A stretch of DNA of 63,648 nucleotides, the filler included, from Folioceros fuciformis (taxonomy: Eukaryota), in NCBI GenBank assembly GCA_049999805.1. It is 8 parts of 8 records of this genome, joined end to end, with 100 filler letters (N's around TTAATTAATTAA, not from the genome) between each part and the next. Parts side by side here need not be neighbours in the genome. Positions count along the whole stretch, not along the records: positions 53,832 to 57,836 come from JBNGIO010006447.1; 7 more parts are not named here. One strand, written 5' to 3'. The notes under the pieces were generated by a model. It was not told where the DNA came from and made no database searches. It worked only from the letters and a program-made list of their open reading frames with translations. How positions within the stretch are numbered: the stretch's first letter is position 1; every line of letters begins with the position of its first letter. Of this stretch, positions 28,938-63,648 are shown piece by piece. The translations under genes and the position numbers were made by a program.

Positions 28938-28988
28938 GCCTAGACAAGACTTTTGTGAGAGTCATCTTCCGACAGCGGTCTCTAAAAG

Positions 28989-37307: not shown

Positions 37308-37341
37308 GAGCTGTCAGTACGAACAGAAATTCAGGATCACA

Positions 37342-42307: not shown

Positions 42308-42344
42308 GGTGCAGTAGGTACAGCAGGTTTGTGGACCCAGCACG

Positions 42345-42406: not shown

Positions 42407-42744
42407 TTCAGCCAGATTCGTAGCGCATTCATCGTCATCGCTTCCTTTAGACTCATCAGGGGGAAGCGNNNNNNNNNNGTCTGGGTCAAGCGCATTCATC
42501 GTCATCGCTTCCTTTAGACTCATCAGGGGGAAGCGCGGTTGGTCTGGGTCAAGCGCGGTTGGTCTGGGTCAAGCGCGTTGAATGAGAATGCCCTTCTGGG
42601 TTCCTTCAAGTCGGCCATTCTACTCTACCTTGATTAGACACATATCTTGCCTGCCGCGAGGAGAAAAGTCAGATTGCTTGCATATGCGAATGAGGAACAG
42701 TCCGTTTGTCAGTCTCAGCTGTGACAGCATTATTGAAAAAGGTG

Positions 42745-43050
42745 AGGACGCTGCTGCCTCAATGCCGTCTGGCGCCTGCCTGGTAGCCATGTACGCATTT
42801 AAACTGCGGGGACTCGAGGATTGATGCCATGCTTGGCCTGACAGGATGGGTAGTCGACTTGGACAGACTGCCCTTACATATGTATCCAGCATGGACTTGG
42901 TGACGAGGCACTTGCCGTGTATGAACGCATGTAGGTGGCGGGGCCCTCATGTTGCTCTTGGTTGCCTTCGTGGTGTTCTTTTAAGATGCAGGCGAGAAAG
43001 ACTTGGCCACAGGGGACTACAAACGTGTGACCACGGGTACGGTTCTTCAT
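42745..43050 (+). pseudogene. Very decayed PPR relic
   Basis: CLVAMYA..GLED, TWT and QHGLGDEALAVYERM in shifting frames. Confidence 0.6.
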
Positions 43051-44527: not shown

Positions 44528-44850
44528 AAGTCCACATGTCCTGTACTCGGGGTTTCACATAGTACGTTGATAATTGAATGCCCGTTAGAAATCCCCTTGG
44601 TAATTGTCCTGTGCGGGCCGCAATTGCAAGAGCAGCCTCCAATTGTTGACATGAAAGAACAGTGTTATCAAGAGCATCATCTAGAAGTCTTTGGTCATCC
44701 ATGCTCACATATCTTAAAGATAGCCCACAATCGGTGATGGCAACATCATTACTCCCCTCAAAGTAATTCAGTAAATAAAATAAGTCTCGAACTACACTTT
44801 AGTGTAGCAAGGGCTACGTCGTAGACGACCATTTGCCCCACATTGGCCAT
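44528..44850 (-). pseudogene. Harbinger transposase N-terminus, second copy (cut by gap)
   Basis: Near-identical to 49287-49609. Confidence 0.85.
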
Positions 44851-45624
44851 AGATTGTCAATCCCTGAGCTTCGACCTAAACCGTAGCTGCTTGCTTCGAC
44901 CTAAAACGTAGCTGCTTGTTGAGCATGAAACTTGCTAAGCTTTGTCAAAGTCCATAGGGACACTTGAGTTCGATCGCGAACAGGCCAAGGCCAGCCCGTT
45001 GTACTGAACCGGTGATGACCCGTTTCAGGCACTTGGCCACTCTCGGTCATGAGTTCCGGTATGGGATAGTTCACACGTAACTGGGAAAAAAATCCCTGGA
45101 AAAAACGCTTAGGGTGGTTCGGGCTACATGGGAACCTAGCATTACTTGGTACATTGGACCCGCCCGGGTCCTGACTCCTGATCCTGTGTGAGAATCCACG
45201 ATTTCGTTTTCATTGCCCCACATTGCTTCGCGACACTAATTTTAGCATTCACGTGCAATGTACCTTGCAGTTATTTAAAATTGAATTTAACCAAAATTTT
45301 ATTTATTGAGGTAGGCATTTCCTTGTCCTCTACTAACAGCCAAAAATCACATATAGTCCTCTTTCTAAACACAAAAAAAAAGTGCTTTCTTCACCAAAGG
45401 GCCAAAGGGCCAAAGGCTGGCCAAAGAGATGCATATGGAAAATACAAATGTGAGAAAGGAAGATATTATAACTCGTTGCCTCTACAAACACTGCTTCCCA
45501 AAGTAGTGAGAGACATTCTAAGAAATTTGGATAATGTGTTTTTTATACTTGACACATTTACACTTCTATAAAATGAGCAACTCTAAAGTGCATACCTTGT
45601 CGAAACACTTTGCTTAATTTGCTT

Positions 45625-47181
45625 TTATTTTGCAGTAATTATTTTGACCTTTTTGTATACCATGGTTAACACACAATTTGCTACACCAGTCTCTCCTATA
45701 GTTTTTGAGGATAGTGCATCCAAGGTATAATTGGTTGCAACACCGGGTCTACTTGGTGCAGTGAACCAAAACTCCTCATTGGAGTTGTGGAACAACCAAG
45801 TCTCTTGCAGTTGCTTCAAACAAAACAACCACAAATAAGAGGAAGGATCGGACAACAGAAAACGACGTTGAACTACTTGACCGTCCAATAATGGAAATGC
45901 AACTCGACAAGTTGCTCTTGATGGAGTGCACGATTCCTTTGGCTCCTCTGGAAGGTTGGTTGTTTCAAACCAAGGATAGCTAGCATTGTAATGTGTATCC
46001 TTGATGATAAGTCTAGACGGAAGATCCCATTGTACCACTTGGTCGCCCTCTTCAAATATGGTCCCCAATGGTAGTGCTTCCTCCACGATATCTCTTGTGT
46101 TGGGTCTTTTGTAAGTGAATGGCAACCATTGCTCTACCAATGCATCCGAGCTTATGTCACTTGCATCACATTGTTTCAATTTCTGCCCGGTAAGTGGGTC
46201 AATCACAAGTATGCAAAAAGTGCTCTCGCCTATGTTGTAAAAGGTCTTCACTTTTAAGATCTCTGTGCTGTTGATTGGGACTTTCCATTCAAGGAAAGAC
46301 TGTACAATGAGATCCTTCGAAATCTTGTTGTTGCAATTTTCCCACTTTCCAAAATGTGGGAATGCCATGATCTCGTCCCCATGGATGTAGGCTAGGAGCC
46401 ACTTGCTCATTGATAATGCCTTCAGCTTTGCATCATGCAAATTTCCCCAATAAGATTGCATGGACATAGATTTGAAACCATGGTTGACAGTGGTTGTTTC
46501 TTCATAGCTTTGGAACCATGGTTGTCCATTTGTAGCTTGCTCATCTGATGAAGGTTCTGATTCTTCATCAATTGTGAGTGGCCATGGTAGTTCACTTGCA
46601 CCAGTCCATGGTTGCCCATTTGTAGGTTGTTCATCTGATGAAGATTCTGATTCTTCATCAATTATGAGCGGCCATGGGAGTTCACTTGCACCAGCCCATG
46701 GTTGCCCATTTGTAGGTTGTTCATCTGATGAAGATTCTGAATCTTCATCAATTATGAGCGGCCATGGTAGTTCACTTGCACCTGCCCAGGGTTGTCCATC
46801 ACTCCATGCTAGTTCACTTGCACCTGCCCAAGGTTGTCCATCACTCCGTGGCTGTTCACTTGCACTAGTCCATGGTTGTTCCCTTGCACAGGCTGTGCAT
46901 GGCTGTTTACTTGCTTCAATCCATGGTTGATCATCTCTAATTTGTGCATAAAGTTCCATAGACCATGGTTGTCTACATGCTATTATAGCTTCTTCATGAC
47001 TTGCACTCCATTGTCGTTCGCTAACTTCAATCCTATGTGGTTTGCCACGAATGGTTTGTTCACAGATTGTGTTGCATGGTTGTTGATGACTAGCATCTGT
47101 GCAAGTCTTATCCCACATCGCTTCATTAGCTTGGTTAAGAATTTCGCTCACCAATTTGTCTTCCCCAAGGTTACGCTCCAT
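45625..47181 (-). CDS. Intronless PUX7/UBXN7-like protein (UAS + UBX) with an N-terminal acidic repeat region, 518 aa
   Basis: UAS: AKLKALSMSKWLL...KVKTFY...ILVIDPLTGQKL...LPF. UBX: LPEEPK...CRVAFPLLDGQVVQRRFLLSDP...LWLFC...GVANC. Repeats: 3 x 90 bp plus 42-bp units at 46516-46870. Confidence 0.88.
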   Translation of the reverse strand: MERNLGEDKLVSEILNQANEAMWDKTCTDASHQQPCNTICEQTIRGKPHRIEVSERQWSASHEEAIIACRQPWSMELYAQIRDDQPWIEASKQPCTACAREQPWTSASEQPRSDGQPWAGASELAWSDGQPWAGASELPWPLIIDEDSESSSDEQPTNGQPWAGASELPWPLIIDEESESSSDEQPTNGQPWTGASELPWPLTIDEESEPSSDEQATNGQPWFQSYEETTTVNHGFKSMSMQSYWGNLHDAKLKALSMSKWLLAYIHGDEIMAFPHFGKWENCNNKISKDLIVQSFLEWKVPINSTEILKVKTFYNIGESTFCILVIDPLTGQKLKQCDASDISSDALVEQWLPFTYKRPNTRDIVEEALPLGTIFEEGDQVVQWDLPSRLIIKDTHYNASYPWFETTNLPEEPKESCTPSRATCRVAFPLLDGQVVQRRFLLSDPSSYLWLFCLKQLQETWLFHNSNEEFWFTAPSRPGVATNYTLDALSSKTIGETGVANCVLTMVYKKVKIITAK

Positions 47182-47731
47182 TTTGGATCAAGGAAGCTCG
47201 ATTTCAGACACTTAGTAGGGAAGCTAAGCAATATCCTCTCAAAAGGTGTTGCCCTTTGCCTTTCTTGAAGCGTAACAACACAAGTAGCTAGGTTCACAAT
47301 CTATATGCACTATGTAATCTCAAGAAGACATCAAGATGATAAACTTAATTGTGAGCTTGCAAAATAACCTAGAACGTCTACTTGTATTGATAAAATAATA
47401 TCATGTACAACACACATATATAGTATATGTAGCTCATTTACATATGATGGTATGTCATTTTGACATGATATCGAGCTTTAATAAAGTATGCCTATAAAGT
47501 TTGTGGACAAAAAGGTATTACATATCTTCAGTTTCCCACGGGGATGGGATATGCAATGGATGGCAGTGGGACAAAGTATCCACACGGTTTGAAAGAACTT
47601 CATATGCAAAGCACATTCACAGTGTGTACATTACTGTGGAGCGATGCTGTACAAAAGGCATTTCGCTAAACTACGCGCTCTCTGTTCGGACAATATGTGA
47701 TTCCGAACGCGCTTGCTTCTATCGAGTTATC

Positions 47732-47880
47732 GGCCGCGTCGCAGCCGTAGTCGCCGGGGTATTCTCCCTTCAGATAGCTCGGGGGCTCGCCGGAGAACGG
47801 GCCCATGTATTTGGGCCTGTCTGGGCCGTACCTACAAGCAAGATCCGTGTTCCTTGATTTACATCGCGTTGCATGTCTCA
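47732..47880 (-). pseudogene. LHCB: Captured LHCB/LHCII fragment (intron 3' end + ~100-bp exon piece)
   Basis: Acceptor ...GCTTGTAG|G at 47832 is followed by [33 protein letters not shown], matching LHCII WYGPDRxKYLGPFS..PSYLTGEFPGDYGWDTA. Confidence 0.9.
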
Positions 47881-48224
47881 TGGCTGGCTAGCTCGAAGCA
47901 TTCAAGAACGAACAGGTCTGGACGATTGCATCCCATGGTCTAGGTGAGAGGGTAACAAACGCAGCTCATTGAGGAGGAGCAAAGCACTTGGACGCGAGTA
48001 ATGGAGCAAAGGAAACTTGAGGTGTATGAGTGAACCGAGGAGAAAAGATTGCAAGCTAACTCTGAATTTGGGCGTGGAGTGGTCTAGGCAATGATCGGCA
48101 TATCTCTTGGGACCCGAAGTCTTAGTTTAGCTATCATAGAGGCAGCCCATATCAAGAAAGGGCGGGTAGAACTTACACAACATTCATTTCTCAACAACAA
48201 AGGGTTGAACATATGGTTTCTAGT

Positions 48225-49609
48225 TCATGAGTTCATCTCATTGCTCCATAACATGTGCATCAAGATGTCTCTCAACCCACTGTGACCTTCGGCACTACCG
48301 GGCCCAGTTGCCATGAAGTTTTGATGCATGCCATCTTCTTCGTCGTCCTCCTCGCCTGCCAATATTCTTGGATCTATCTCATCACCACGATCTATCCGAA
48401 TGTTGTGCAGTAGCACACATGCATAAGTCAACGCATTGAAGTAGTCGATGTTGCCTCGCCACACCCTCCTACCTAGTATCCGCCAAACCTTTTTCAGTGC
48501 TCCGAAAGCGTCCTCAACGACCATACGAGAAGAGGATAGCTTGAAGTCAAAAGACTCTTTGTCTGCCATCAAACCTTGACCAGGAAAGGGGATGATCAAC
48601 CATGGAAGCAAAGGGTAGCCAACATCTCCGATGATATACTCTCGCACTTCCTCGTTATCCACGAGCATGGATGGTCCATTCAGCCGTGCACCTGCATTGG
48701 CTTGGTGATATACCTCTGAGTTGTATAGAATTCTCGTATCATTTGCAGCTCCTGGCCAGCCTGTTACTACGTCTAAGAACTTCTTATTGGGGCCTACGAT
48801 ACCTTGCATTGCGACTGTGAGATCCTTGTATCTTCCTCGATACTCCCATTGGTTTTCTCCTACAGGCAGTTCCAACCGAAAATGGGTCACATCGATGGCA
48901 CCACAACAATCCATGAAGCCATGTCGTTCAAAGAATCCTGCCTTCACTTCCTCCAATTTGACCTGTTGATGGCCAGGCAAGGTGATGCCTAGCCTTCTAT
49001 ATGATTGCTTTGACAAAACGGTGAGTAATTGTGCAGGCAATTGACTGTCCCACTCCGAAGCTGTCACCTAAAGAGACAAAGCTATCACCTGTGGCCAGTC
49101 TCCTTAAGGCAATGGCAACTTGTTTATGCACAGAGATAATCCCCCCGGGGATGTTCACAAATCCAGGAACTGGAGTCGGGTCAAGAGCGTCATGAACTAG
49201 ATTGCAGATGTACGTAGAGGTTGCCCATGGGAATCCATAGAAACGGGCAAACCTTTTTGGATCCTCTTGTGCCACTTGAAGGTATAAAGTCCACATGTCC
49301 TGTACTCGGGGTTTCACATAGTACGTTGATAATTGAATGCCCGTTAGAAATCCCCTTGGTAATTGTCCTGTGCGGGCCGCAATTGCAAGAGCAGCCTCCA
49401 ATTGTTGACATGAAAGAACAGTGTTATCAAGAGCATCATCTAGAAGTCTTTGGTCATCCATGCTCACATATCTTAAAGATAGCCCGCAATCGGTGATGGC
49501 AACATCATTACTCCCCTCAAAGTAATTCAGTAAATAAAATAAGTCTCGAACTACACTTTAGTGTAGCAAGGGCTACGTCGTAGACGACCATTTGCCCCAC
49601 ATTGGCCAT
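48225..49609 (-). pseudogene. PIF/Harbinger DDE transposase (HARBI1/ALP1 family), disrupted
   Basis: Motifs KQVAIALRRLATG, RHHLAWPS, CCGAIDVTH, GWPGAAND, IIGDVGYPLLPWL, RMVVEDAFGALK, ACVLLHN. In-frame TAG at 48997-48999, frameshift near 48955 and a probable one near 49555. Confidence 0.93.
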
Positions 49610-50374
49610 AGATTGTCAATCCCTGAGCTTCGACCTAAACCGTAGCTGCTTGCTTCGACCTAAAACGTAGCTGCTTGTTGAGCATGAAACTTGCTAAGCT
49701 TTGTCAAAGTCCATAGGGACACTTGAGTTCGATCGCGAACAGGCCAAGGCCAGCCCGTTGTACTGAACCGGTGATGACCCGTTTCAGGCACTTGGCCACT
49801 CTCGGTCATGAGTTCCGGTATGGGATAGTTCACACGTAACTGGGAAAAAAATCCCCGGAAAAAACGCTTAGGGTGGTTCGGGCTACATGGGAACCTAGCA
49901 TTACTTGGTACATTGGACCCGCCCGGGTCCTGACTCCTGATCCTGTGTGAGAATCCACGATTTCGTTTTCATTGCCCCACATTGCTTCGCGACACTAATT
50001 TTAGCATTCACGTGCAATGTACCTTGCAGTTATTTAAAATTGAATTTAACCAAAATTTTATTTATTGAGGTAGGCATTTCCTTGTCCTCTACTAACCACC
50101 AAAAATCACAGATAGTCCTCTTTCTAAACACAAAAAAAAGTGCTTTCTTCACTAAAGGGCCAAAGGCTGGCCAAAGAGATGCATATGGAAAATACAAATG
50201 TGAGAAAGGAAGATATTATAACTCGTTGCCTCTACAAACACTGCTTCCCAAAGTAGTGAGAGACATTCTAAGAAATTTGGATAATGTGTTTTTTATACTT
50301 GACACATTTACACTTCTATAAAATGAGCAACTCTAAAGTGCATACCTTGTCGAAACACTTTGCTTAATTTGCTT

Positions 50375-51402
50375 TTATTTTGCAGTAATTATTTTGACCT
50401 TTTTGTATACCATGGTTAACACACAATTTGCTACACCAGTCTCTCCTATAGTTTTTGAGGATAGTGCATCCAAGGTATAATTGGTTGCAACACCGGGTCT
50501 ACTTGGTGCAGTGAACCAAAACTCCTCATTGGAGTTGTGGAACAACCAAGTCTCTTGCAGTTGCTTCAAACAAAACAACCACAAATAAGAGGAAGGATCG
50601 GACAACAGAAAACGACGTTGAACTACTTGACCGTCCAATAATCGAAATGCAACTCGACAAGTTGCTCTTGATGGAGTGCACGATTCCTTTGGCTCCTCTG
50701 GAAGGTTGGTTGTTTCAAACCAAGGATAGCTAGCATTGTAATGTGTATCCTTGATGATAAGTCTAGACGGAAGATCCCATTGTACCACTTGGTCGCCCTC
50801 TTCAAATATGGTCCCCAATGGCAGTGCTTCCTCCATGATATCTCTTGTGTTGGGTCTTTTGTAAGTGAATGGCAACCATTGCTCTACCAATGCATCCGAG
50901 CTTATGTCACTTGCATCACATTGTTTCAATTTCTGCCCGGTAAGTGGGTCAATCACAAGTATGCAAAAAGTGCTCTCGCCTATGTTGTAAAAGGTCTTCA
51001 CTTTTAAGATCTCTGTGCTGTTGATTGGGACTTTCCATTCAAGGAAAGACTGTACAATGAGATCCTTCGAAATCTTGTTGTTGCAATTTTCCCACTTTCC
51101 AAAATGTGGGAATGCCATGATCTCGTCCCCATGGATGTAGGCTAGGAGCCACTTGCTCATTGATAATGCCTTCAGCTTTGCATCATGCAAATTTCCCCAA
51201 TAAGATTGCATGGACATAGATTTGAAACCATGGTTGACAGTGGTTGTTTCTTCATAGCTTTGGAACCATGGTTGTCCATTTGTAGCTTGCTCATCTGATG
51301 AAGGTTCTGATTCTTCATCAATTGTGAGTGGCCATGGTAGTTCACTTGCACCAGTCCATGGTTGCCCATTTGTAGGTTGTTCATCTGATGAAGATTCTGA
51401 TT
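50375..51402 (-). CDS. PUX7-like UAS-UBX gene, second copy (5' end lost in gap)
   Basis: Near-identical to 45625-46652; reads CRVAFRLLDG, keeping the UBX Arg. Confidence 0.86.
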
Positions 51403-51502
51403 NNNNNNNNNNNNNNNNNNNNNNNNNNNNNNNNNNNNNNNNNNNNTTAATTAATTAANNNNNNNNNNNNNNNNNNNNNNNNNNNNNNNNNNNNNNNNNN
51501 NN

Positions 51503-52000
51503 AGAAATCTAGCATGAGGGCCAACAGCTCTTGCCCATAATGCTTGTCCATGAGGGTGGTCTGAAGCCCCCTCATACCCCCATAAAGGAAGGAAGAAAAC
51601 GAAGGCATGACCAATCGGGCTTGTGAAGATAAGAGACCATGGGCCCTCATGAGGGGCTCCTGGAGGGGGAATGGCCCTTCCTCAACTGCCATGAGAAACC
51701 CCTCCAAAATGCCCAAGTTTCTAATGGAGAAGCAAGTCACCAAAGCTTGGGCAGAGAGCGCCCAACTACTAAGAAAAGTAGTTGGCGCCAAGGCCTCTAT
51801 GGCCGATAGTCCAATGCCGCCCAAAGCAATGGGTAGAGATGCCTATCTCTTAGCCAAATCACCTGAAGCATAGTCGAATGAACCCAGGCCAACAATGTCC
51901 CCTAATTCTTTCAATACCTACTTGTCCAAGTCCCTCAATTTGGAAAGAAAGTCTAGGGATGGAGGCACTGTGCGGACGAGGTACCCAGGGCATTGCGCAA
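51503..52000 (-). mobile_element. CRE/R2-like non-LTR retrotransposon relic, RT C-terminal region
   Basis: LAKR*ASLPIALGGIGLSAIEALAPTTFLSSWA resembles the GGLG...AxLxSW thumb region of RLE-type elements. Confidence 0.6.
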
Positions 52001-52006
52001 AGTAGG

Positions 52007-53311
52007 TGGACAGACATTTGTGAACCCTTGTCTACACCCTCTTTTAGACGTAGTAGATATTTTTTGACCTTCATAGATGATTTCTCTCATTTTGTCTTTT
52101 CCTGCATCTTGAAAAACAAGAGTGATGCCTTTCACTTCTTCAAGGACTACATAAAATGGGCTGAGACACTTACAGATAGCAAACTCAAAACCTTATGTTC
52201 CGACAATGGTGGAGAGTTTACATCTACTGAATTTGAGGAGTTTTGTTGAGCTGAGGGGATAGCTCAACAACTTACAGTTGTCTACACTCCTCAACAAAAT
52301 GGCGTTGCCGAGAACAAGAATCTACGCCTTCAAGAGATCACAGGTTGCTTATTGGTACAAGCTAAGTTATCTAAGGCTTATTGGGCAGAGGCCCTCCTCA
52401 CAGCAACCTATCTCATGAATCGATTGCCTACATCAGCAGTTCAAGGTATGACTCCATATGAAGCATTCATTGGCAAGAAGCCTTCTATTGACCACCTCTG
52501 AATTTTTGGATCCCCGGCATATGTTTTTATTCCCAAAGCATTGCGTAAGAAGTTGGATCCCAAAGCAGCTAAGTACACTTTCATTGGCTACACCGAAGAT
52601 ATCAAAGGGTACAAATTATTCAACCCTTCTACAAGGCAACTTTTATATGCCCAGAGTGTCACTTTTAATGAGTCTTACCTCTTTTCCCCAAAAGTGGGAG
52701 CTGATCATATTGGTCCTTCTCTCGATGAGACCATTGACCCTTCTTATTTTGATGATACTGATTATCTCACTCCATTTCCTATTCCTGCTTCCCGTGCTCC
52801 TTTAGTTGAACCTATTATGCAAGAGGAGGAGGAGTTAGCATCCATTCCACAACCTGGTACAACTCAACCAGACGCACCTAATGTTGACATCCCAACAGAG
52901 GTGCCAGTTGATACTCATGATGATAAATTTGAATGACCCTCTGGAGGATGCATCACATTGTGGAGCCAGCAGATCCTTTCGTAGATCCCACTCCTGTGGA
53001 TGATGCACCTGCACAAAGGTACAACCTCAGATCCCGGCCTACCATTTCAAGTCCTGCAGGTTGGAAGGACCTGAAATCCTTTAGGATACCTAGCTGTTTT
53101 TTATGATCCTATTCCTCCCGTATCACTTTATTCTCAAGCTGTATACAAGACAACTATAGACCCAGAAGAACCTCTTACCTTAAAACAAGCTTTCTCTTCT
53201 CCTGAAAAAGACTTATGGAAGGTAGATGTAGACTTTGAATATAATTCCCTAGTTAATAACTCTACATGGGAATTGGTCAAGCCACCTAGGGGAAGGAAGA
53301 TAGTACCACAC
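52007..53311 (+). mobile_element. Copia integrase to RT-start fragment, no LTRs
   Basis: Motifs TDICEP, YFLTFIDDFS, SDNGGEF, YTPQQNGVAE, RKKLDPKA, EEPLTLKQA, TWELVKPP; stops present. Confidence 0.9.
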
Positions 53312-53577
53312 TAAATGGAAATAATACTCAACACGCACGCACTTCAATAGCAAGAACTGAAAAGACAAGACCTCTGGGATATGGATTCTTCCTTGGAAAA
53401 AGTTGAAGGAGTAGTAGCAATGGAAGAAGCACCCCTAACCTATAGCTCCCAAAGGCTTCAATCAAAGTCCTTGTGTGCTTTAACCAGGTGACACCTGAGC
53501 CCTATAACCTCTTTGAACAAACTGTTGCATGCGGGACATGGGGTATCTTTGGCCGGTATGGAAGAATGAGGTGCCAT
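53312..53577 (-). pseudogene. C2H2 zinc-finger N-terminus, probably of the same CRE-like element
   Basis: ATG at 53577 gives MAPHSSIPAKDTPCPACNSLFKEVIGLRCHLVKAHKDFD*, a canonical CX2CX3FX5LX2HX4H finger. Confidence 0.6.
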
Positions 53578-53831
53578 AAGTGAACAAAATAGAATGCCGA
53601 AGAGAGACCAATAGTAAACACCCCGTCAGCTCTAGCCTGCTTGCATAATTCTGGCTTCCAGCCCCGAATATCGAAACACTGTGGAACCAAAGCTCTTCAA
53701 AAATCTCCATGCCAATCATAAATTTCGAATCNNNNNNNNNNNNNNNNNNNNNNNNNNNNNNNNNNNNNNNNNNNNTTAATTAATTAANNNNNNNNNNNNN
53801 NNNNNNNNNNNNNNNNNNNNNNNNNNNNNNN

Positions 53832-53864
53832 AATGGTTGTTGCAGTTGTAAGGGTCGACCATGA
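53832..53864 (+). CDS. 3' end of another DYW:KP GRP gene (copy C)
   Basis: NGCCSCKGRP* followed by the array spacer. Confidence 0.8.
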   Translation, partial: NGCCSCKGRP

Positions 53865-54771
53865 GAAAAATGAAGAAGTGAGTGTAGCCAGTGCCAGGTG
53901 GATTCCTAGTGGTGTGCGGATTGGTCGTGGTGGCAAGTACGGATGTTCCCCTAACAAGAAGACGAAGAAGAAGAAGAATTGTATGATGGTGCACTTGAGG
54001 GCATTTCGCTCTGTGGGACTAGGTACTTCACACCTTTGTAGCAAGCCTAGCATGTTTTCCCTGCACCCCTGCACACTGTTCATGATGAGCACGTTGTACA
54101 CGTGCTTTGCAGGGTCTCGTCAACTCGTTCTCCTCACCAATACTGCCATATGTATATTATGCTGTACAGTGCAGGTGAAAGCAGATTGGTAGCCAGTATG
54201 CCGAGGAGTATGAAGGCAAAAGGATCTTGGCAGTTCACAGGAAGCAAGTGAAAGTAGCAATCCCAATCACAATCCAGGCAGTGCGAGGCACATATCTAGA
54301 CTTTTACTTAACGGCAATTCCTCGTCTAGTCACATCCTGGGCCGCGTTGCCGTTTCGGCCTTCAAGATGCCAACTGACCTAACTGCGTGATGAGAAACAG
54401 AGACCGTTATACCATGGCTCGCTTAAAAGATCTTGGGGTATGTAGGTTGGCATGCACTTAACGTTGACAAGCCTTAAATGAAATTCTTGTTTCTCTTATG
54501 GCGGCTGACAAGCAATTAACTGTTTTGTATATCTCAAGTGAAACATAAAGTTACTACGTAATATCCGTCACATGGTCGAGTGGTCTGAAGCACCAAACCG
54601 ACAGCTCGCCCACAGGTATTATAGAACGGCTCACCCCTTCAGGCAGGACGGCTTACGGTTCACCCCTTCAAGCAGCTGTGGTCTTACATACGTATGTACA
54701 GGGTATTCGGCCGGAGATCCGCCTAGACGAGAGTTTTGTTAGAGTCATCTTCCGACACCGGTCCGTGAACG

Positions 54772-57700
54772 ATGGCCACAGTATGGCAACCGGACCTGTT
54801 GTGGACCCAACAAATTGGAATTGGTGTGTGTACAAGGACTCTACCAGGAAGCCCCGCTCACCTCAGTTTCGGGAGTGAACCCTTTGCAAACAAAGCCTCC
54901 AGGTGCAGCAGTGTGAGGAGCCCAGCACTTCCACCTCCGAGAACGAGAATGTGTGTGGGCAGGGACGGGTTTTCCGACGATGCTGGTAGTTGCCAGGAGC
55001 AGCAGGAGCACTTGTGGCAACAACTTTTTCTGGACCCTACCATGTGGTTGGATAACAGACGAGACAAGAAGAGCTCCCGTTCCCCTGACTTCCGGCGTAA
55101 GGGGTCCGGCGAGGTGCTGTGGTTGGACAACATGTTTAAGCCAGCATGGGTTGATGACAGGCTCATCTCGTTGGATATGCAGATGGATCACGGTTCCGCC
55201 CCTTCCATCTCCAGCTCTCCAGATAATCCTGATCCTGGAAGGCGTACAGGTGGTGAAATGGGCTCCAGACGCAGCAGTGCTAGAAATCCAGCACTTCCAC
55301 ATCCAATGCGCCATAGAGTCTCTTCTTTCGAGTGCAGCTCTCCGTATAAGAGTGGATCTGGCAGGCGTGCAGAATTGGAAACGGGCGTCGTAACGGCTGC
55401 AACTGTGAGCATGTTATGTCATCAGGGGAAGCTTTCTGAGGCGGTTGGAGCCCTGGAATCTCTGGTGCAGTCAGACTCTGGCGTTTCTCAGTCTCTGTTT
55501 TACACAGTGTTAAAACTCTGTACAGCTAAGAAGGATTTGGTGGTGGGGCGACGAGTTCATGATCTCACAGTCAAACTTGGGTACGAGTCGAATGCATATT
55601 TGGGGAACCATATCTTGCGCATGTATGCATGTGGAGGTAGGCTAAAGGAGGCGATGGATGTGTTCAACAGGGTAGGGAAACCGAATGTCTTCATGTGGTT
55701 TTCCATAATTTCTGGACATGCTAAGCACGGGAAGCCGAAGGAGGCCATACAACTGTACCATGAAATGCGTAGGTCAGAAGTGAAGGCGAATGGTTATGTG
55801 TTTGTAGCCGCCCTTCAAGCTTGTGCATATGCTGCCGACATAGAATCTGGCAGAACAATGCACCGCGACGTGTTGTGCAGTGGCTTCCGTACTGACTTGT
55901 TTGTTAACAGCTGCTTGGTGGATATGTATGCAAAATGTGGCCGAATGAAAGATGCACGCCAGGTTTTTGATAGCATGAACACGAAGGATGTGGTGACATG
56001 GACGGTCCTGATCGCTGGGTATGCACAGCAGGGACTGGGCCAAGAGGCACTTGTTGTTTATGGACAAATGGAGGAGGCAGGCGTGGTTGTGGCTGACTAT
56101 GTTACTTTTGCTTGCCTTCTGAAGGCGTGTGGAAGCACTGGAGCCTTGCAGAAGGGCAGGGAGCTCCACTCGCAGATTGTCAACAGAGGTCTGCTGGATG
56201 ATGTACTCGTAGGCACCTGCCTGGTGGACATGTATGCAAAATGTGGTGAGGTGGAATGTGCACGACAGGTTTTTGACAACATGAACACAAAGAATGTGGT
56301 TACATGGACGGCCCTGATTGCTGGGTATGCACAGCAAGGACTCGCCCAAGAGGCCCTTGGTCTGTACGGGCAGGTGGAGGAGGCAGGCCTCGTTTTGGCC
56401 GATGATGTTACTTTTGCATGCATTCTGAAGGCGTGTGCAAGCAGTGGTGCATTGCAGAAGGGCAGGGAGGTGCACTCACAGATTGTCAACAGAGGTCTGC
56501 TGGATGATGTACTGGTAGGCACCTCCCTGGTGGACATGTATGCAAAATGTGGTGAGCTGGAAGATGCACGCCAGGTTTTTGACAGCATGAACAGTAAGAA
56601 TGTGGTTACATGGACCGCCCTGATTGCTGGGTATGCACAGCAAGGACTCGGCCAAGAGGCGCTTGTTGTGTATGGACAGATGGAGGAAACAGGACTCGTT
56701 TTGGCTGATGATGTTACTTTTGCTTGCATTCTGAAGGCGTGTGGAAGCACTGGTGCCTTGCAGAAGGGCAGGGAGCTGCACTCACAGATTGTCGAGAAAG
56801 AACTGCTGGATAATGTAGTGGTGGGCACCTGCCTGGTGGACATGTATGCCAAATGTGGTGAGGTGGAAGATGCACGCCAGGTTTTTGACAGCATGGCCAC
56901 TAAAGATGTCGTCACATGGAATGCCCTGATTTCAGGGTATGGTGCTTGTGATGAAGGTTGCAAGGCGCTAGCTTGTTTTGAGGAGATGTTAGCTGCCGGT
57001 GTTCATCCTAACCATGGTACTTTTACTTGCCTTCTAGTAGCATGCAGTCATGGGGGTCTGGTCGAGGAGGGTCGCAAGCTCTTTGATTCCATGGCTGAAG
57101 AGCATGGTGTCATACCTACTGCTGAGCATCACAACTGCATGATTGATCTTCTTGGGCGTGCTGGCGAACTAGATGAGGCAGAGAGGATGCTATTATCATG
57201 TGAGGGCGAAAGTGATGTGGTGTGTTTGACATCTTTGTTGAATGCCTGCAAAAGTCACGGAGATCTAGAGAGGGCTGTGTGGTGTTTTGAAAGCATTGTT
57301 AGGCTGGACCCCCAGGAGGCACCTGCCTATGTTCTCATGGCCAATGCCTATGCAGATGCAGGTAGGTGGACCGATGTAGACAGGATTGAAACACAGAGAA
57401 AGGCAGCAGGAGCTAAGAAGAAGCCAGCAGTGGCAAGCATTGAGGTAAATAAGGAGGTACACAGATTTCAGGTGGGAGAAAGGAGAAAGGATATTGCGCT
57501 TAAGGTAGAGAGCACGAATGCGCGTGTGAAGCAGGAAGGAGGCCACGTACCTCACACAAAGTTGGTGTTGAAGCCAGTGAGTGAGAAGGAAAAGGAAGAC
57601 GTGCTTTGTGGGCATGCTGAGAAGCTAGCTCTGGCGTTTGGTCTGTTGAACACTCCGAATGGGACACCTCTGATGGTAACCAAGAATCTACGCATGTGCA

Positions 57701-57822
57701 GTGATTGCCACAGCTCGACGGCGATCATGTCGAGGCTTGAGCAGAGAGACATTGTTGTGAGGGATGGGTACCGTGTGCATCGATTCGCAAATGGTTGTTG
57801 CAGTTGTAAGGGTCGACCATGA
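54772..57822 (+). CDS. Full-length intronless PLS-PPR-E-DYW:KP (GRP-type) organellar RNA editing factor, copy D, 1016 aa
   Basis: About 200-aa Ser/Pro/Arg-rich leader, ~17 PPR motifs with 306-bp triplet repeats, E1/E2, KKKPAVASIEV, HAEKLA, CSDC, terminal GRP. Confidence 0.96.
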   Translation: MATVWQPDLLWTQQIGIGVCTRTLPGSPAHLSFGSEPFANKASRCSSVRSPALPPPRTRMCVGRDGFSDDAGSCQEQQEHLWQQLFLDPTMWLDNRRDKKSSRSPDFRRKGSGEVLWLDNMFKPAWVDDRLISLDMQMDHGSAPSISSSPDNPDPGRRTGGEMGSRRSSARNPALPHPMRHRVSSFECSSPYKSGSGRRAELETGVVTAATVSMLCHQGKLSEAVGALESLVQSDSGVSQSLFYTVLKLCTAKKDLVVGRRVHDLTVKLGYESNAYLGNHILRMYACGGRLKEAMDVFNRVGKPNVFMWFSIISGHAKHGKPKEAIQLYHEMRRSEVKANGYVFVAALQACAYAADIESGRTMHRDVLCSGFRTDLFVNSCLVDMYAKCGRMKDARQVFDSMNTKDVVTWTVLIAGYAQQGLGQEALVVYGQMEEAGVVVADYVTFACLLKACGSTGALQKGRELHSQIVNRGLLDDVLVGTCLVDMYAKCGEVECARQVFDNMNTKNVVTWTALIAGYAQQGLAQEALGLYGQVEEAGLVLADDVTFACILKACASSGALQKGREVHSQIVNRGLLDDVLVGTSLVDMYAKCGELEDARQVFDSMNSKNVVTWTALIAGYAQQGLGQEALVVYGQMEETGLVLADDVTFACILKACGSTGALQKGRELHSQIVEKELLDNVVVGTCLVDMYAKCGEVEDARQVFDSMATKDVVTWNALISGYGACDEGCKALACFEEMLAAGVHPNHGTFTCLLVACSHGGLVEEGRKLFDSMAEEHGVIPTAEHHNCMIDLLGRAGELDEAERMLLSCEGESDVVCLTSLLNACKSHGDLERAVWCFESIVRLDPQEAPAYVLMANAYADAGRWTDVDRIETQRKAAGAKKKPAVASIEVNKEVHRFQVGERRKDIALKVESTNARVKQEGGHVPHTKLVLKPVSEKEKEDVLCGHAEKLALAFGLLNTPNGTPLMVTKNLRMCSDCHSSTAIMSRLEQRDIVVRDGYRVHRFANGCCSCKGRP

Positions 57823-57936
57823 GAAAAATGAAGAAGNNNNNNNNNNNNNNNNNNNNNNNNNNNNNNNNNNNNNNNNNNNNTTAATTAATTAANNNNNNNN
57901 NNNNNNNNNNNNNNNNNNNNNNNNNNNNNNNNNNNN

Positions 57937-60900
57937 CATCTGTCATTTTGAATTCGCCGCTAAGTAGATCTTTGAGCTCATTGATCATCTCCAGACTGTT
58001 AGACATAAGAATTAAGTCATCTACATAAATGGCCAGTGCCAGAAACTCTTTGTTCTTCCCTCTCTTCACATACACATTAGAGTCAGCATGGATAGGTAAA
58101 TAACCATGTGCAATTAGAAAGTTGTGTATGCGTGAGTACCAAGCCCGTGGGCTTTGTTTGAGGCCATATATTGTTTTGCGAAGCTTACACACATTCTGAC
58201 CTTTGTCCTTTGCTGTGATCAGGCCAGCTGGTGGCAGCATATATATTTCTTCATTCAGATTACCATATAAGAAAGCAGTTTTGACATCGAGCTGTTCAAG
58301 CTCATAATCATGGATAGCTGCCAAAGCTAGGAAGATGCGCAAAGTACTCATCTTAACAATTGGACTGAAAGTATCTGAATAATCAACTCCAGGGACTTGT
58401 GAGTACCCTTTGGCAACAACTCTTCCTTTATATCTGTCCACTGAGCCGTCGGATTTCAGCTTAATCTTAAATACCCATTTGGAGCCGACAGCCTTCCTAC
58501 CAACTGGAAGCTGAGTCAGGGACCATGTATCGTTCTCCTTCAATGAAGCTAACTCTGATGCTATTGCAGCCTTCCAATGAAGTGCATCAGAGCAGGTGAT
58601 CGCATCCTCATACGTCAAAGGTTCATAGTGCTCTACTGTAGTAGATAGGCAGTAGGCTAAGTTAGACTTAGGATGATCCTTAGAATGTGGATACGGATAC
58701 CTGAAGTCAACTGGTGTATAGAGGTCGATTTTCCCCGCCGTGGTCCTGACTGGCCTTTCCCTCGGTGGTACGGAAGCTGCCTTCTTTCGCTTGACAATGC
58801 CAGGAGATGAAATATGCTGCTGGCTGGAAGAAGGGGAATCAAATAGAGGGCCAGGTGAGACGACACCTTCCATGTCAAAATCTCCGAACACAATAGGTTC
58901 ACTAGCACCACTTGCAGCAGGTCTGATAGGGACTGTAGGGGCTGGTGTGGAAGGAGTTTGCTAAAAGATGGGAGGATGAAGTGGTGCTGTTGGGTGTGTG
59001 ACAGGTTGAGCTGCTGAAGGTAGTGTAAAGCCAACAACAGGCTGCTCATCAGCCTCCTCATCTGAGTCTGTGGCGAGGTCCGAAGATGAAGCTCCCACTG
59101 AATTAGTAGACTCAATGCCCTCAACGAAGATCACATCACGAGAGTGAGTTACCTTCTTGGTCCTTCTATCAATGACCTTGTAGCCCTTAATTCCTTCAGT
59201 GAAACCAAGAAAGATGCATGATGAGGACTTCTTATCAAATTTCTTACGAAGGTCTTTGTGAATGTGCACATAAACAGGAGAACCAAATACACGAAGATGA
59301 GAAATATTTGGTTTCTTGCCTGTCCATAACTCATAGGGAGTTTTACCCTCAACTGCAGCATGAGATATGCGGTTTTGGATATAAGTGGCATATGCCACAG
59401 CTTCAGCCCAATAGCATTTCGGAAGATCAGCATAGGTAAGCATACTTGTTACCGATGTTTCTAGAGCCTTGTTCTTGTTCTCTGGAACACCGTTCTGCTG
59501 AGGAGTGCGTGCATTAGTAAACTGTCTGCCAACGCCATAGTCCGTGCAGAATGCTTGAAAAGCTCCCGATGCATACTCGCCTCCATTATCGGAGCGAAGT
59601 ATCTTCAGCCTGTGATCAGTTTGATTTTCTGACCACAGCTTAAACTCCTTGAAACAGGCCAGAGTTTGGGACTTCAGCTTGATAAGGTACACCACACAAA
59701 AACGTGAGAAGTCATCAATGAAAGATAGAAAATAATGCATGCCCCCGAGTGATGCTGGGAAGGGTCCACCGACATCACTATGCACCAAAGCCAGTAGCTT
59801 GGTGGCCCTCTCAGCTGGCTCAGTTGGGAAAGGAGAGCGCTGATGTTTTCCAAGGACACAAGCATGGCATACTCCAAAATCAGATAAGTTGTCTAACTTC
59901 AGTCCTTTGACCAAGTTATCTCGATGCATTGTGACTAACTTCTGAAAATTGATGTGGCCTAATCGCAGATGCCACAAATAGGTCAAAGAGGGCTGAACCA
60001 TAGACTTGGTGCTGGCAGCTGCATAAGCATGAGATTGCTTTACATCCAAATGATAAAGATCATCAGATCTGAGGCCGCCAGTTGCCATAAGAGTGCCTTG
60101 AGCAGTTTCTACAACACACTTACTTCCACCAAAACAGATGAAGCACCCGGACTGATCAATTTTTCGAACTGATAGAAGGTTCTTGGTCAAGCCCGGTACA
60201 TAGAGGACATCAGGAATTTCAAGATGCTGATCTGGCTCAAGGTGTAATTTGATAGTACCTTGGCCTTGAATTTGGTGAGTAGTGCTGTCTCCCAAGCACA
60301 CAAATCTCTCACCTTGAGTAGGCTCCATGCTGGAGAAGTAAGCTTCATGGGGAGTCATGTGCTGAGAAGCTCCCGAGTCTATGTACCATACATGCTCAGC
60401 TTGAGTAGCGAGGCAAGTGACCACAAGAGCTGTGGAACACACATCCTTCTCGGTAAGTGCATGCTCCTTTACACTTGCTGTAAAAGCTTTTGAATACTTA
60501 TTCATCGTTACAGCCAAGTGGCCTGATGAGTGGCCACCTCCAGATGCATTGGCCAACCGTTTTCTGCAGACCTCCCACGTGTGGTTGTTGAGGCCACAGT
60601 AGCCACATGGTGGCTTTCCTCTTCCAGCAGAAAAATTCGGTGGTTTGAACGAGGCACCGCGGCCTCTACCTCGACCACGTACAAAGGGGCGTCCCCTTCC
60701 TCTCCCTCGGCCTGATTTGTTTATAAACAATGCTTTGTCTCCTGCAGTAGATAGGGATGACATCTTCCTTCGTGTCTCCTCTGTCAACATAGCAGATATA
60801 ACCCGATTGACTGTGATCGTGGGAATACCTTGCAGGGATTGGACGACATTGGTCCAGCTTTCAGGCAATTGAGAGAGTAAAATAACCGCCATTATATCAT

Positions 60901-61056
60901 CATCCAGTTCAAAACCAAGTGCAAGAAATTTTGTTTGCCAACTCCTGTAGGTAAGGACATGCTCAGCCACATTATCAGTTTCGGACATTCGTAACCCTAT
61001 AAACATTTTGAGTGTATGTGTTTTCAGCATTAAGTCTACTGCATCATACACTTCCA
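57937..61056 (-). mobile_element. Copia gag-pol internal region (both ends in gaps), disrupted near 58961
   Basis: Motifs CGYCGLNNHTWEVC, WYIDSGASQHM, LWHLRLGH, HSDVGGP, SDNGGEY, QLDVKTAFL, IYVDD. Confidence 0.93.
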
Positions 61057-61155
61057 NNNNNNNNNNNNNNNNNNNNNNNNNNNNNNNNNNNNNNNNNNNN
61101 TTAATTAATTAANNNNNNNNNNNNNNNNNNNNNNNNNNNNNNNNNNNNNNNNNNN

Positions 61156-63648
61156 NGTACTGCTGGAAGTGCTACCTCCAGCACTACCGGATGTGTACCC
61201 GGGAGATGGTCCTGCTGTTTCTCCCCCATAGGGAGCTTTGCTCCACGAGACAAACGAAACTTCAGCAGGTCCTGTAGGTTTAGACCTAAAGGTCACACCT
61301 TTCCTGCCAAAATCAAACACACAAGCTGTCCCGTACAACCACGGTCTCCCAAGGAGCACCTTGTACCCTAGGTCAGACACTGGCCTCATGACAATGTAGG
61401 TTAGCTTGAACATGATCCCTCCTATCACCGTGGGCACATCCTTCAACACTCCTAGAGGCTTCCTCTTGGTCTGATCTGCCATCCGAAGGTACACGCGGAT
61501 AGGGTCAAACTCCGTGAACCCCAAACGATGGGCTGTGTCCTCCGTCATGAGGTTGACACCAGACCCCGTATCCAACGGTACATCCGGTACCAGACAACCT
61601 GCAATCTCCACCTCTATTTCAGGAGCTCCACAATCAGCCAACTCCACTGAACTCATCCACGTCGGGACTGTCTTCCCTTCGAGTGGCTCCGGTATCCCTC
61701 GGATGGCTTCCTTGACGATCTTCCTGGCCTTGGGACTAACAGACAAGAGCTGTCTCAAGCTCACCACAAACTCCTGGTCAAGCAAGGCGTCAGCAAATCC
61801 AGCAACCTTCATGGCCAAAGCCTCCCTTGCTGTTGTTGTCTTAGGAGGATTGATCCCTCCATCCTCCTCGCTTCGATCAACCTTCTCTCCTTCGTGTTCC
61901 TTCTCCAAGGGACTTGCACTCTCCACCACCCCTGTCACAAGAGGGTCTGCAAACGTGACCTTCTTAGACCGGTGCATCAGCCTAGTAAGCTCTTCCTCCA
62001 GCATTGCAGCAACCTCCTTGCTGATGTCGGGTGGGAATGCTGATTCTTCAACCTCTCCTTCATCTAGTTCACCTTCCTCTCGATGGGGTGGATCAACCTC
62101 TTGTCCCGTCGACACATCATTCTTCCCTTGCTGGACGAGTGGTTCCTCCCTTGCCTCCGATGGTTTAGGAGTGTTGTCACGTTCTCTCCTCCTTCTCTTC
62201 TCTTCCTTCTTCGTCTTCTCCCGATAACGACGTTCAGAACGAGTGGTGACCCTTGCCACCATGACGTCTTCACCATCGCTAGCTTCGCCTGAATATCCCT
62301 CCTCCACAATGCCAGAAAATGCGTGAGAGTCAATCAAAGGCTCCTCCTCAGCCTCCACCGACAACACAGGTGCGCTTGTCACTGGAGTTGTTGTCTCCAC
62401 CGCAGAAGGAAGTCCCTCTTGCGGTGCCTCCGTGATCCTCACTCCAGATCTAGGCAGCGCAGGCCTAGGGATGCCCGAACACCTTGGATCCCCAGCCCTG
62501 TGCCCTGGATCCTTACACACCTGACAAAACGGCACAAATCCAAGTTGCCTACGTGGCTCTGTGCACTCGTTAGCATAGTGTCCCGGCAAGCCACAATTAA
62601 AACAACACCCTGCTGCCACCACTTGTGGACGTTGGGACGGATCTGGCCTCCAATGGCCTGGAGATACTGGACGAGGACCATACCTCATTCCAGGAGGTCC
62701 TGGTGGTTGGAAAGATGGCCGAATGGACTGTGGTGGTCGAGGAGCAGTCACAGCCTGTACCTGATAGGAGTCATCCACGTACCAATAGTCTCCTGGTAGG
62801 TAGGTGTCCACTTGGTTGACGGCGTGGCGGGGAGCCCTAGTGCACTCTTGGTGGGTGTGTCCTGATTGGTGACAAATAGAACAGTACACCAGCTGCCGAC
62901 CCGGTGAAGGTGACCTCCTTGGTGCTTGGTTGCGTACAGCCTTCACCTCCAGCTCGGCCAGCCTCCTCGTCAATGCCTCAACCTGACTGGTCAGTCCTCC
63001 ACCACTTGAGGATGGTTCGCCTCTCTCCATCCTATAGGATCCTTTACCTCTCTTGTCCTTCTCAGCTCGACGATCCTCATCCTCTTCGCGCCTCTTGCGT
63101 GCTTTCTCCAGGTCCTTCCTCATCCTCTTCTCATAAGCCTTATCGGACTCCTCATCGGTGTAAGAATCCGTCACAAGGCTGTCATAATCGGGATCAGAGT
63201 GAGACGGTGACCTCGACCTTGAAGAGGAAGATGGGCTGTGATGTCTTGACCTCCTATGATGCCCATACTTCCGGTTCTGCTTCCTCTTCTCTCTGCTCAA
63301 CTCCGAAAGCTCAAAATCTTCAGCAGCCTTCAAAGCCTCCTGCAAAGTGGTCACACCTCTTGTGCAGTAGGTTGCCATCCTATCAGGTAGTCCTCCAGCA
63401 AACCAATCCAAAGCTTGAGCATCCGTGTACCCTGGAGTACTCGGACCTCCCGGAACAACTGGCCTACCACGTGGAATCCTGTCCACATAGCTGTAGAACC
63501 TCTCAATGTAGTCATAGAGATCCTCCTTCCTTCCTCGCTTCAAAGTCCTCAACCTCGCGTAGGTGTGATGGCCATGGCTGAGACCTCGGAACCTGGTCAA
63601 GAAATCGTCCTTCAGGCTGTCCCAATCCACTGGTGGTGTCACTCCATA
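61156..63648 (-). mobile_element. Ty3/Gypsy gag-protease ORF
   Basis: Retrotrans-gag WDSLKDDFLTRF; three CCHC knuckles; aspartic protease LDTGSGVNLM...VLLGRPWL; open for more than 820 codons. Confidence 0.9.

Follow-up and report, generated by a model that had tools for sequence, protein, structure and literature searches.

Repeat shuffling and uneven gene conversion as the probable source of predicted RNA-specificity differences between two DYW:KP-type PPR gene copies of Folioceros fuciformis

Two PPR gene copies of Folioceros fuciformis, here termed A and D, are nearly identical in their C-terminal catalytic part and yet differ at several of the residues that are predicted to select the RNA target. 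Does this reflect adaptive re-aiming of the repeats on a constant catalytic domain, or the way in which the repeats and genes have been copied? The window, i.e. the whole stretch of DNA that was analyzed, comprises 63,648 nucleotides and consists of eight contigs chained by seven linkers (N44-TTAATTAATTAA-N44). A and D are located on different contigs of this chain, all of them unplaced, so that the two copies need not be linked.

Copy D (54772–57822, plus strand) is an intact open reading frame of 1016 amino acids ending in GRP, as judged by translation, Pfam and motif segmentation. It is built up from an N-terminal extension and five P1-L1-S1 triplets, followed by P2-L2-S2, E1, E2 and a DYW:KP domain; the Pfam matches are PPR (1.4e-85), E_motif (2.7e-15) and DYW_deaminase (3.3e-34). 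In both copies the motifs were assigned by counting motif lengths backwards from the KPAV box. This resulted in clean triplets of P1 (36 residues), L1 (35) and S1 (31) and then P2 (35), L2 (36), S2 (32), E1 (34), E2 (34) and DYW (133). The region 55990–57822 corresponds to residues 407–1016 of D. It contains, all on the plus strand, the three near-identical 306-bp triplets t3, t2 and t1 (55990–56907; P1 code TD, TD, TD and S1 code TN, TN, TD), P2-L2-S2 (56908–57216; P2 = NN, S2 = ND), the E1 and E2 motifs (57217–57420, from Pfam and segmentation) and the 133-residue DYW:KP domain with the stop codon (57421–57822).

The N-terminal extension of D carries an OSB-type PDF motif at residues 75–140, approximately (54994–55191, plus strand). 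A word-based search of the N-terminal region against shorter proteins gave no match; the motif was found later by an exhaustive HMMER scan with residues 1–203, which yielded 479 matches at E ≤ 1e-3 with the best stretches at query positions 60–150. One of these matches, P0171, carries the name OSB1, mitochondrial-like. Antisense reading frames at 55774–56475, 56097–56963 and 22015–23205 matched no Pfam family at its cut-off.

Tandem P-L-S motifs followed by P2-L2-S2, the feature of the PLS class, are present in A and D (Pfam PPR and segmentation), and the deaminase signature HxE...CxxCH occurs in both as HAEK (domain positions 65–68) and CSDCH (93–97). PMC9478123 names three regions that distinguish DYW:KP domains. 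The box at domain positions 1–5 is KPAVA in A and D, where PG-type homologues have PGCSW. The HxE motif has the alanine form, as opposed to HSE, and the alanine of HAE is described as specific to DYW:KP (PMC9478123). Both copies end in GRP; the hornwort DYW:KP proteins fall into two subgroups, GRP and DRH (PMC9478123). In A and D a lysine occupies domain position 88 when the count starts at the K of the KP box. According to PMC11845758, Lys88 of KP6 is required for U-to-C editing; as this active-site lysine is conserved in PG domains too (same source), it does not discriminate between the types. Forty-one homologues with HAE[KR] were set against PG/HSEK/DYW homologues. The nearest homologues end in GRP or DRH, the four closest (60–67% identity) in GRP, and the named homologues come from ferns (45–50% identity). 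U-to-C editing is found in hornworts, lycophytes and ferns; the GRP end of A and D and the GRP or DRH ends of their nearest homologues point towards a hornwort. Judged from their sequences, A and D are PLS-E1-E2-DYW:KP proteins of the GRP subgroup and putative U-to-C editing factors. The genes of the array are probably nuclear and would encode putative hornwort-type factors for the U-to-C editing of organellar RNA.

Copy A (22214–24064, plus strand) is an open frame of 616 codons that lacks the 5' part of the gene and likewise ends in GRP. It contains three triplets followed by P2-L2-S2-E1-E2-DYW:KP (Pfam PPR 2.4e-75). Its homology to D begins at 22218, within an S1 motif, and it has neither a start codon nor a presequence. 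It adjoins a Copia-type gag reading frame (21357–22238, plus strand; Retrotran_gag_2 2.5e-30 by Pfam, together with translation and junction sequence), and the junction falls inside gag and not at a normal element end. Copy A is not a whole gene, its 5' portion being cut off at the Copia gag fragment. Fragments of transposable elements surround it.

Other copies are damaged as well. Copy B (28989–29792, plus strand) covers 268 codons from the N-terminal end of a further array member; its frame is interrupted by a stop at codon 240, and its homology ends at 29782. Copy C (39059–39882, minus strand) is a frameshifted remnant of about 2.7 triplets with 74–78% nucleotide identity to D. D itself is preceded by the tail of another DYW:KP copy and an array spacer (53832–54718, plus strand), the latter homologous to the DNA 3' of A (24032–24913, 90.8%). 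The tail was recognized as the first 47 nt of the D contig, which are identical to its last 47 nt; the same 47 nt are also found in A. The D contig aligns to the contig of A and B in three pieces. It is probable that D, as an intact gene, and A, as a 5'-truncated one, both belong to a GRP-subgroup family of PLS-E1-E2-DYW:KP genes that are arranged head to tail in arrays.

Since the D contig has the same 47 nt at both ends and the contigs are short and unplaced, copy number and even triplet order hold only in so far as the assembly is correct. A comparison of 53832–57836 with four sequencing runs listed short contig pieces covering at most 169 nt, none of which spans this interval. A, D or both could be chimeras of near-identical family members, so that motif order and code lists would match no real gene, and the eight contigs with their seven linkers, the shared 47 nt and the unusual gag/PPR junction of A all point in this direction. 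D is, however, open over 1016 codons with a regular motif order, the gene-specific states are consistent in all three S1 motifs of A and of D, and divergence between the copies declines smoothly, without blocks. We consider an artifact of this kind very unlikely.

Each P and S motif would, as in the rest of the family, read one RNA base via its fifth and last residue, with S2 at −4, and the DYW:KP domain would convert the U. According to a review (PMC12733224), N at position 5 specifies a pyrimidine and S or T a purine, while a last residue D specifies U or G and N specifies C or A; PMC9478123 places S2 at −4. The rule on which the earlier target prediction was built agrees with both sources. 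Re-segmentation from the KPAV box reproduced exactly the fifth/last pairs that a sequence-only reading had listed for the eight C-terminal P and S motifs, namely ND, ND, TD, NN, TD, ND, TD, ND in A and TD, TN, TD, TN, TD, TD, NN, ND in D. Five of eight pairs (7 of 16 single residues) are different, as opposed to 7 of 201 residues in E1+E2+DYW (13 of 603 nucleotides), which also confirms the earlier counts. Under the PPR code these five differences support the proposal that A and D have different predicted RNA specificities. The target pattern of eight motifs plus the edited U would contain about 17 bits of information. By chance, a few hundred kb of organelle DNA, both strands considered, should include several perfect matches, so that a test is informative only if it is confined to known edited sites. 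Among the 20 matches to sequencing runs listed, which cover part of the stretch (best share 0.42), none was RNA.

Code residues are indeed enriched among the differences between A and D (7/16 versus 30/252 other P and S residues; Fisher p = 0.0025). As the three triplets are not independent, more cautious tests gave weaker p values: 0.035 for a permutation of triplet columns, 0.030 for the clearly orthologous part only (P1_1, S1_1, P2 and S2; 3/8 versus 10/126) and 0.025 with the three differences at S1 position 5 counted as one event (5/14 versus 30/252). The claim that code positions are more variable than others thus stands for this pair. It does not extend to the 41 more distant KP-type homologues, in which P2-5, P2-35, S2-5 and S2-32 rank 50th, 71st, 43rd and 29th of 103 positions by entropy; at this depth the code positions alternate among N, T and S or between D and N and are not conspicuous. 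Between A and D the code residues changed about four times faster than the others (dN 0.235 versus 0.061). The proposed positive selection, with a dN/dS above 1 for the fifth and last residues, was not borne out, as the code-codon dN relative to the dS of the tract (0.211) gives a ratio of about 1.1, i.e. about neutral, from eight nonsynonymous changes in two sequences and with little power. Such a roughly neutral rate is compatible both with relaxed and with diversifying selection on specificity in a family that evolves by birth and death, and the present data do not separate the two.

The apparent constancy of the catalytic end probably has a different basis from the one originally suggested. 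The dN/dS ratios of A versus D are alike along the gene (triplets 0.30, P2-L2-S2 0.43, E-DYW 0.33; 0.32 for the whole PLS tract), whereas dS drops from 0.245 in the triplets to 0.115 in P2-L2-S2 and 0.045 in E-DYW. Synonymous differences amount to 45/215 in the triplets versus 6/136 in E-DYW (p = 8e-6), and counts of nucleotide differences in 150-nt windows decrease in the 5'-to-3' direction from 20–23 to 2. A five-fold lower dS at the same dN/dS indicates a mosaic of ages and not stronger constraint on E-DYW, so that the diversity of the PPR tract next to a constant catalytic chassis does not hold as a contrast in selection. Constraint on silent sites could be a partial cause of the low E-DYW dS.

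These ratios also bear on the possibility that A is simply a dead fragment whose code residues differ because they are unconstrained. The cut at 22218 against the gag fragment, the missing start codon and presequence, the surrounding transposable-element fragments and the state of the neighbors (a nonsense codon in B, frameshifts in C) would all be expected from neutral decay. The 616 codons of A, however, contain no stop or frameshift, and the PLS tract has a dN/dS of 0.32 compared with 0.69 for B versus D. Of the 18 lineage-specific changes in P2-DYW, five are derived in A, four in D and nine are undecided; most of the divergence is therefore older than any loss of function in A. Decay as the cause of the code differences is accordingly improbable.

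Adaptive re-aiming would mean that positive selection acted on the specificity residues after duplication, with purifying selection on E-DYW, and that A and D serve different sites. It would account for the enrichment of code residues (p about 0.03 in the cautious tests), for the purifying selection on the remaining tract (omega 0.30) and for the lack of an excess of changes in A. Both code residues of P2 are changed (TD versus NN), and together with the open 616 codons of A at a dN/dS of 0.32 and the balanced lineage changes this also fits two functional genes selected for different targets. Against it stand the code-codon omega that is not clearly above 1, the similar dN/dS of E-DYW and triplets despite the five-fold difference in dS, the mid-rank variability of code positions among the 41 homologues and the loss of the 5' half of A. 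In addition, three of the seven code changes belong to one repeated patch of sequence (see below). We regard re-aiming as unlikely, though less so than decay of A or an assembly artifact.

The repeats themselves provide the more informative signal. TRF detected a 306-bp period in D (3.4 copies at 87%, 55911–56941) and in A (3.2 copies at 90%, 22218–23183). For adjacent triplets the identity reaches 0.90 in copy A and 0.87 in copy D, compared with a median of 0.48 in 120 homologues. In a tree of the triplets, triplet 1 forms the sole A-D pair (94.1% nucleotide identity, 86% bootstrap), and the other nodes are weak (38–56%); A_t3 and A_t2 are each other's nearest relatives (91.8%). Only this last 306-bp triplet is clearly orthologous between A and D. 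The informative sites of the triplets form 435 pairs, of which 194 are incompatible. In a PHI-type permutation p was 0.004 (k = 5), 0.016 (k = 8) and 0.064 (k = 10), the signal fading at wider neighborhoods. The shuffling or conversion of the 306-bp triplets that had been suspected is borne out by these results. Among the titles listed in a literature search on hornwort PPR/DYW genes there was nothing on triplet conversion in KP genes.

All three gene-specific fixed differences lie within a 14-nt patch covering S1 codons 1–5 (D, plus strand: 56203–56217, 56509–56523 and 56815–56829; A: 22445–22459, 22751–22765 and 23057–23071). They affect position 1 of codon 1, position 3 of codon 4 (silent) and position 2 of codon 5. 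As the three N/T differences at S1 position 5 sit within this one patch common to all S1 motifs, they are not independent.

Based on these observations we propose that the code difference between A and D probably goes back to a shuffling of repeats and to uneven gene conversion within a gene array that is decaying, which explains the data better than adaptive re-aiming. Duplication and conversion of the 306-bp triplets would have taken place both inside a copy and from one copy to another, so that orthology between A and D does not extend to triplets 2 and 3. The 14-nt patch with S1-1 (I/V) and S1-5 (N/T) would have spread into all three S1 motifs of a gene, and the orthologous part would have acquired a few point changes at the code residues S1_1-5, P2-5 and P2-35. 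The E-DYW end would appear constant because of a much more recent common ancestry, i.e. a homogenized 3' end, and not because of stronger constraint. A more far-reaching version is conceivable, although as a whole we consider it doubtful. Short conversion tracts would copy S1-5, with the linked S1-1 and the silent site, into every S1, so that a single event changes the specificity at three RNA positions spaced by three nucleotides. Concerted evolution of the triplets would then offer a way of jumping to new targets, with the catalytic end kept uniform by separate 3' homogenization and the N-terminal OSB-type PDF motif acting as a second nucleic-acid-binding element.

The layout (P1L1S1)n-P2L2S2-E1E2-DYW of A and D is the same as in hornwort GRP-subgroup PPR-DYW:KP proteins (Gerke et al. 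2020 and Gutmann et al. 2020, cited in PMC9478123). The KPAxA box, the HAE site, the 133-residue domain, K88 and the GRP end are also shared with this subgroup (PMC9478123, PMC11845758), and the domain features show no difference. The designer proteins KP2 and KP3 were derived from such proteins, and designer proteins based on GRP edit U to C (PMC9478123). Peculiar to the present case are the three triplets with 85–92% nucleotide identity, the head-to-tail array with dead neighbors and the N-terminal PDF motif, although Gerke 2020 or Gutmann 2020 may already describe these points. With canonical PLS-DYW:PG C-to-U factors such as PpPPR_56 and OTP86 (PMC9478123), A and D share the PLS architecture, the fifth/last code, S2 at −4 and the HxE...CxxCH zinc site; those factors have a PG box, HSE and a DYW end, whereas A and D have KPAVA, HAE and GRP.

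Natural U-to-C editing factors are poorly known, and GRP-type domains already serve as templates for designer RNA base editors. With 93% DNA identity and five of eight predicted bases different, the A/D pair would be suited to tests of specificity change and of the movement of code residues in blocks by triplet conversion. More generally, selection should not be invoked for a contrast between variable PPR and constant DYW parts until synonymous divergence and the orthology of the repeats have been checked. A related situation is reportedly found in the Rf-like P-class PPR clusters of flowering plants (Fujii et al. 2011, PNAS), for which positive selection is said to have been shown with many copies. 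Both systems would have tandem clusters with birth-and-death turnover, recombination among the copies and residues in contact with RNA that change faster. The Rf-like genes are P-class genes without a deaminase, whereas the present array consists of deaminase genes with only two comparable copies and a code-site omega of about 1.

We used copy D, the sole long PPR open reading frame in the window (54772-57822, +; 1016 aa), as the tblastn query against the window. Copy A (22214-24064, +) matched it with 89.6% amino-acid identity over 615 residues. Motifs were segmented by counting lengths backward from the KP box, and both copies comprise a regular series of P1(36)-L1(35)-S1(31) triplets followed by P2-L2-S2-E1-E2-DYW(133). 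TRF confirmed the 306-bp period of these triplets, which had been noticed in an earlier, sequence-only reading covering residues 407-1016 of D.

Both copies have Pfam matches to PPR, E_motif and DYW_deaminase. Each deaminase domain is of the KP variant, with a KPAVA box, HAEK, K88, CSDCH, a length of 133 residues and a C-terminal GRP. Among the 120 homologues listed, KP-type proteins (KPAxA-like box, HAEK, ends such as GRP, DRH or DMF) split cleanly from PG-type proteins (PGCSW, HSEK, DYW); the nearest four homologues among the matches listed (60-67% identity) end in GRP too. GRP and DRH have been described as the two hornwort DYW:KP subgroups, and GRP-based designer proteins performed U-to-C editing in E. 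coli (22-26%) and in human cells (PMC9478123). Lys88 was reported to be essential for the U-to-C reaction (PMC11845758). Based on the domains, the KP and GRP features, the GRP homologues and this published editing, we interpret D as a putative hornwort-type factor for organellar U-to-C editing, whose activity, targeting and targets are presumed. Residue 837 of D (57280-57282, +; position 22 of E1) is a tryptophan, whereas arginine occupies this site in A, in each of the four GRP outgroups and in 33 of the 41 KP homologues. The substitution is specific to D, the sole intact copy, and falls at a conserved position of E1.

The contig carrying D aligns to that carrying A and copy B, an N-terminal fragment (28989-29792, +), in three pieces: its 3' 1.86 kb with A (93.2%), its first 887 nt with the DNA downstream of A (90.8%) and the 5' end of D with B (90.0%). 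It opens with the final 47 nt of a DYW:KP gene (53832-53878), identical to its own end (57790-57836) and also present in A (24032-24078). The family therefore forms a head-to-tail array whose members are separated by about 0.9 kb of spacer, and the D contig is one tandem-repeat period bounded by the shared 47-mer. The contig may be a collapsed unit, and its shared ends are an assembly warning in a multi-copy family. Public sequencing runs supplied only short pieces of contig. Whereas D is intact, the homology of A starts at 22218 within an S1 motif, immediately downstream of a Copia gag ORF (Retrotran_gag_2, 2.5e-30), likewise broken inside gag, and A has no start codon, presequence or upstream motifs. 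B has a stop at codon 240, with homology ending at 29782, and copy C (39059-39882, -) is frameshifted. An insertion of about 4 kb (24914-28937) interrupts the spacer between A and B and contains a retroviral-polymerase SH3-like ORF (27067-27720, -; Pfam 9.4e-17).

A and D had been treated as paralogs. Their differences are real, but A is a truncated fragment, and the two copies look linked as an artefact of how the contigs were concatenated. The window consists of eight short contigs (1-18497, 18598-30963, 31064-44427, 44528-51402, 51503-53731, 53832-57836, 57937-61056 and 61157 to the end) chained by seven artificial linkers N44-TTAATTAATTAA-N44 (18498-18597, 30964-31063, 44428-44527, 51403-51502, 53732-53831, 57837-57936 and 61057-61156), and A and D lie on separate contigs. 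Since the contigs are unplaced, gene neighbourhood across a linker is meaningless and findings built on it are unsafe. The window also contains a graveyard of PPR copies: distant, decayed tblastn matches to D lie at 39059-39882 (-), 34639-35287 (-) and 36565-37307 (+), and decayed PPR pieces of the third contig at 37065-37307 (+), 34621-35556 (-) and 36559-37119 (+). The debris of this contig includes the tail of a DYW domain that ends in GDHN, together with frameshifted PPR/E-motif fragments. Elsewhere we observed Copia and Gypsy type retroelement ORFs, a DDE_Tnp_4/Plant_tran (DDE) transposase (48225-49067, -) and, on the first contig, two ordinary plant genes: a lipoyl synthase N-terminal domain piece (12041-12679, +) and a GPAT/RAM2-like pair of HAD and acyltransferase ORFs (15867-17616, +), which probably represent a single gene interrupted by an intron or a shift of frame.

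For the code residues (the fifth and last residues of P and S motifs, whose pairs choose the RNA base) our segmentation gave the same lists for A and D as the sequence-only reading. Five of eight pairs differ, i.e. 7 of 16 single residues, and 7 of 201 residues differ in E1-E2-DYW. The PPR code rule and the S2 register at -4 applied there agree with those described in PMC12733224 and PMC9478123, respectively. The expectation that code positions are more variable than other positions held between A and D: 7/16 versus 30/252 P and S residues differ (p=0.0025, all residues assumed independent), and enrichment was also obtained with triplet columns permuted (p=0.035), in the orthologous part alone (3/8 versus 10/126, p=0.030) and with the S1 patch described below collapsed (p=0.025). 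It did not hold in 41 more distant KP homologues, where entropy places the code positions of P2 and S2 between 29th and 71st of 103, because toggling stays within N/T/S and D/N. The proposed positive selection was not borne out either, as dN at code codons (0.235, versus 0.061 elsewhere) is only about 1.1 times the tract dS. Code codons evolve in a neutral-like manner, not demonstrably under positive selection, and code residues are moderately special. The single observation that hints most at a functional shift is the P2 pair, TD in A and NN in D, where both residues are changed. When the 18 P2-DYW differences were polarised with four GRP outgroups, 5 proved A-derived and 4 D-derived, with 9 unassigned; they show no sign of long neutral drift in A.

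The A/D alignment is gapless over 610 codons. Counted in 150-nt intervals, the nucleotide differences drop steadily along it, with 20-23 at the 5' end and 2 at the 3' end. Nei-Gojobori estimates of dS, dN and dN/dS were 0.245, 0.073 and 0.30 for the triplets, 0.115, 0.050 and 0.43 for P2-L2-S2, and 0.045, 0.015 and 0.33 for E1-E2-DYW. The synonymous contrast between triplets and E1-E2-DYW is 45/215 versus 6/136 (p=8e-6). The idea of a rapidly diversifying tract on an unchanging catalytic chassis thus finds no support as a contrast in selection: as dN/dS is similar and dS unequal, selection intensity is the same all along the gene and the age of shared ancestry is what differs. In triplets 3 and 2, dS is 0.29-0.50 in five of six motifs (0.14 in S1 of triplet 2), above the ~9-10% divergence of the spacer and the B/D 5' region. 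This rise cannot be attributed to protein-level selection.

The suspected conversion among triplets found support. The only between-gene pairing is that of the last triplets before P2-L2-S2 (t1; 94.1%, bootstrap 86%), while t3 of A is closest to t2 of A (91.8%) and the remaining nodes have 38-56% support. Of 435 pairs from 30 informative sites, 194 are incompatible with a single tree, and compatibility is higher for neighbouring than for distant sites (p=0.004, 0.016 and 0.064 for k=5, 8 and 10). Fixed differences separating the A units from the D units are limited to three nucleotides, in codons 1 (I/V), 4 (silent) and 5 (N/T, a code residue) of S1. Since they are confined to 14 nt at the S1 start, the three differences at S1 position 5 are a single linked patch carried by all S1 motifs of a gene and do not represent three independent re-aimings. 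Neighbouring triplets have an identity of 0.90 in A and 0.87 in D, versus a median of 0.48 among the 120 homologues listed; at least 0.7 was reached in five of these, all PG-type. The PLS triplets here bear an unusually clear mark of concerted evolution.

The N-terminal extension of D has a predicted OSB-type PDF motif (HMMER; residues ~75-140, 54994-55191, +), also detected in B (28989-29708). The PDF motif is a ssDNA-binding motif of about 50 aa from plant organellar SSB-like proteins. A HMMER scan with D residues 1-203 gave 479 matches at E<=1e-3, one named OSB1, mitochondrial-like, from Populus (E 2.2e-17); many carry the motif in 2-13 repeats and lack any Pfam family, and 5 of 10 scanned matches are PPR proteins with the motif N-terminal. 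Five of the 120 DYW homologues listed carry it (two GRP, one DRH, the rest PG-type, named from moss and liverwort). A literature search on both terms together found no link between the PDF motif and pentatricopeptide proteins; one review covers both, unconnected.

The A and D genes add to an already known family, the GRP-type DYW:KP PPR genes. Their evolution is likewise of a known kind, combining fast change at PPR code residues with recombination in tandem PPR clusters.
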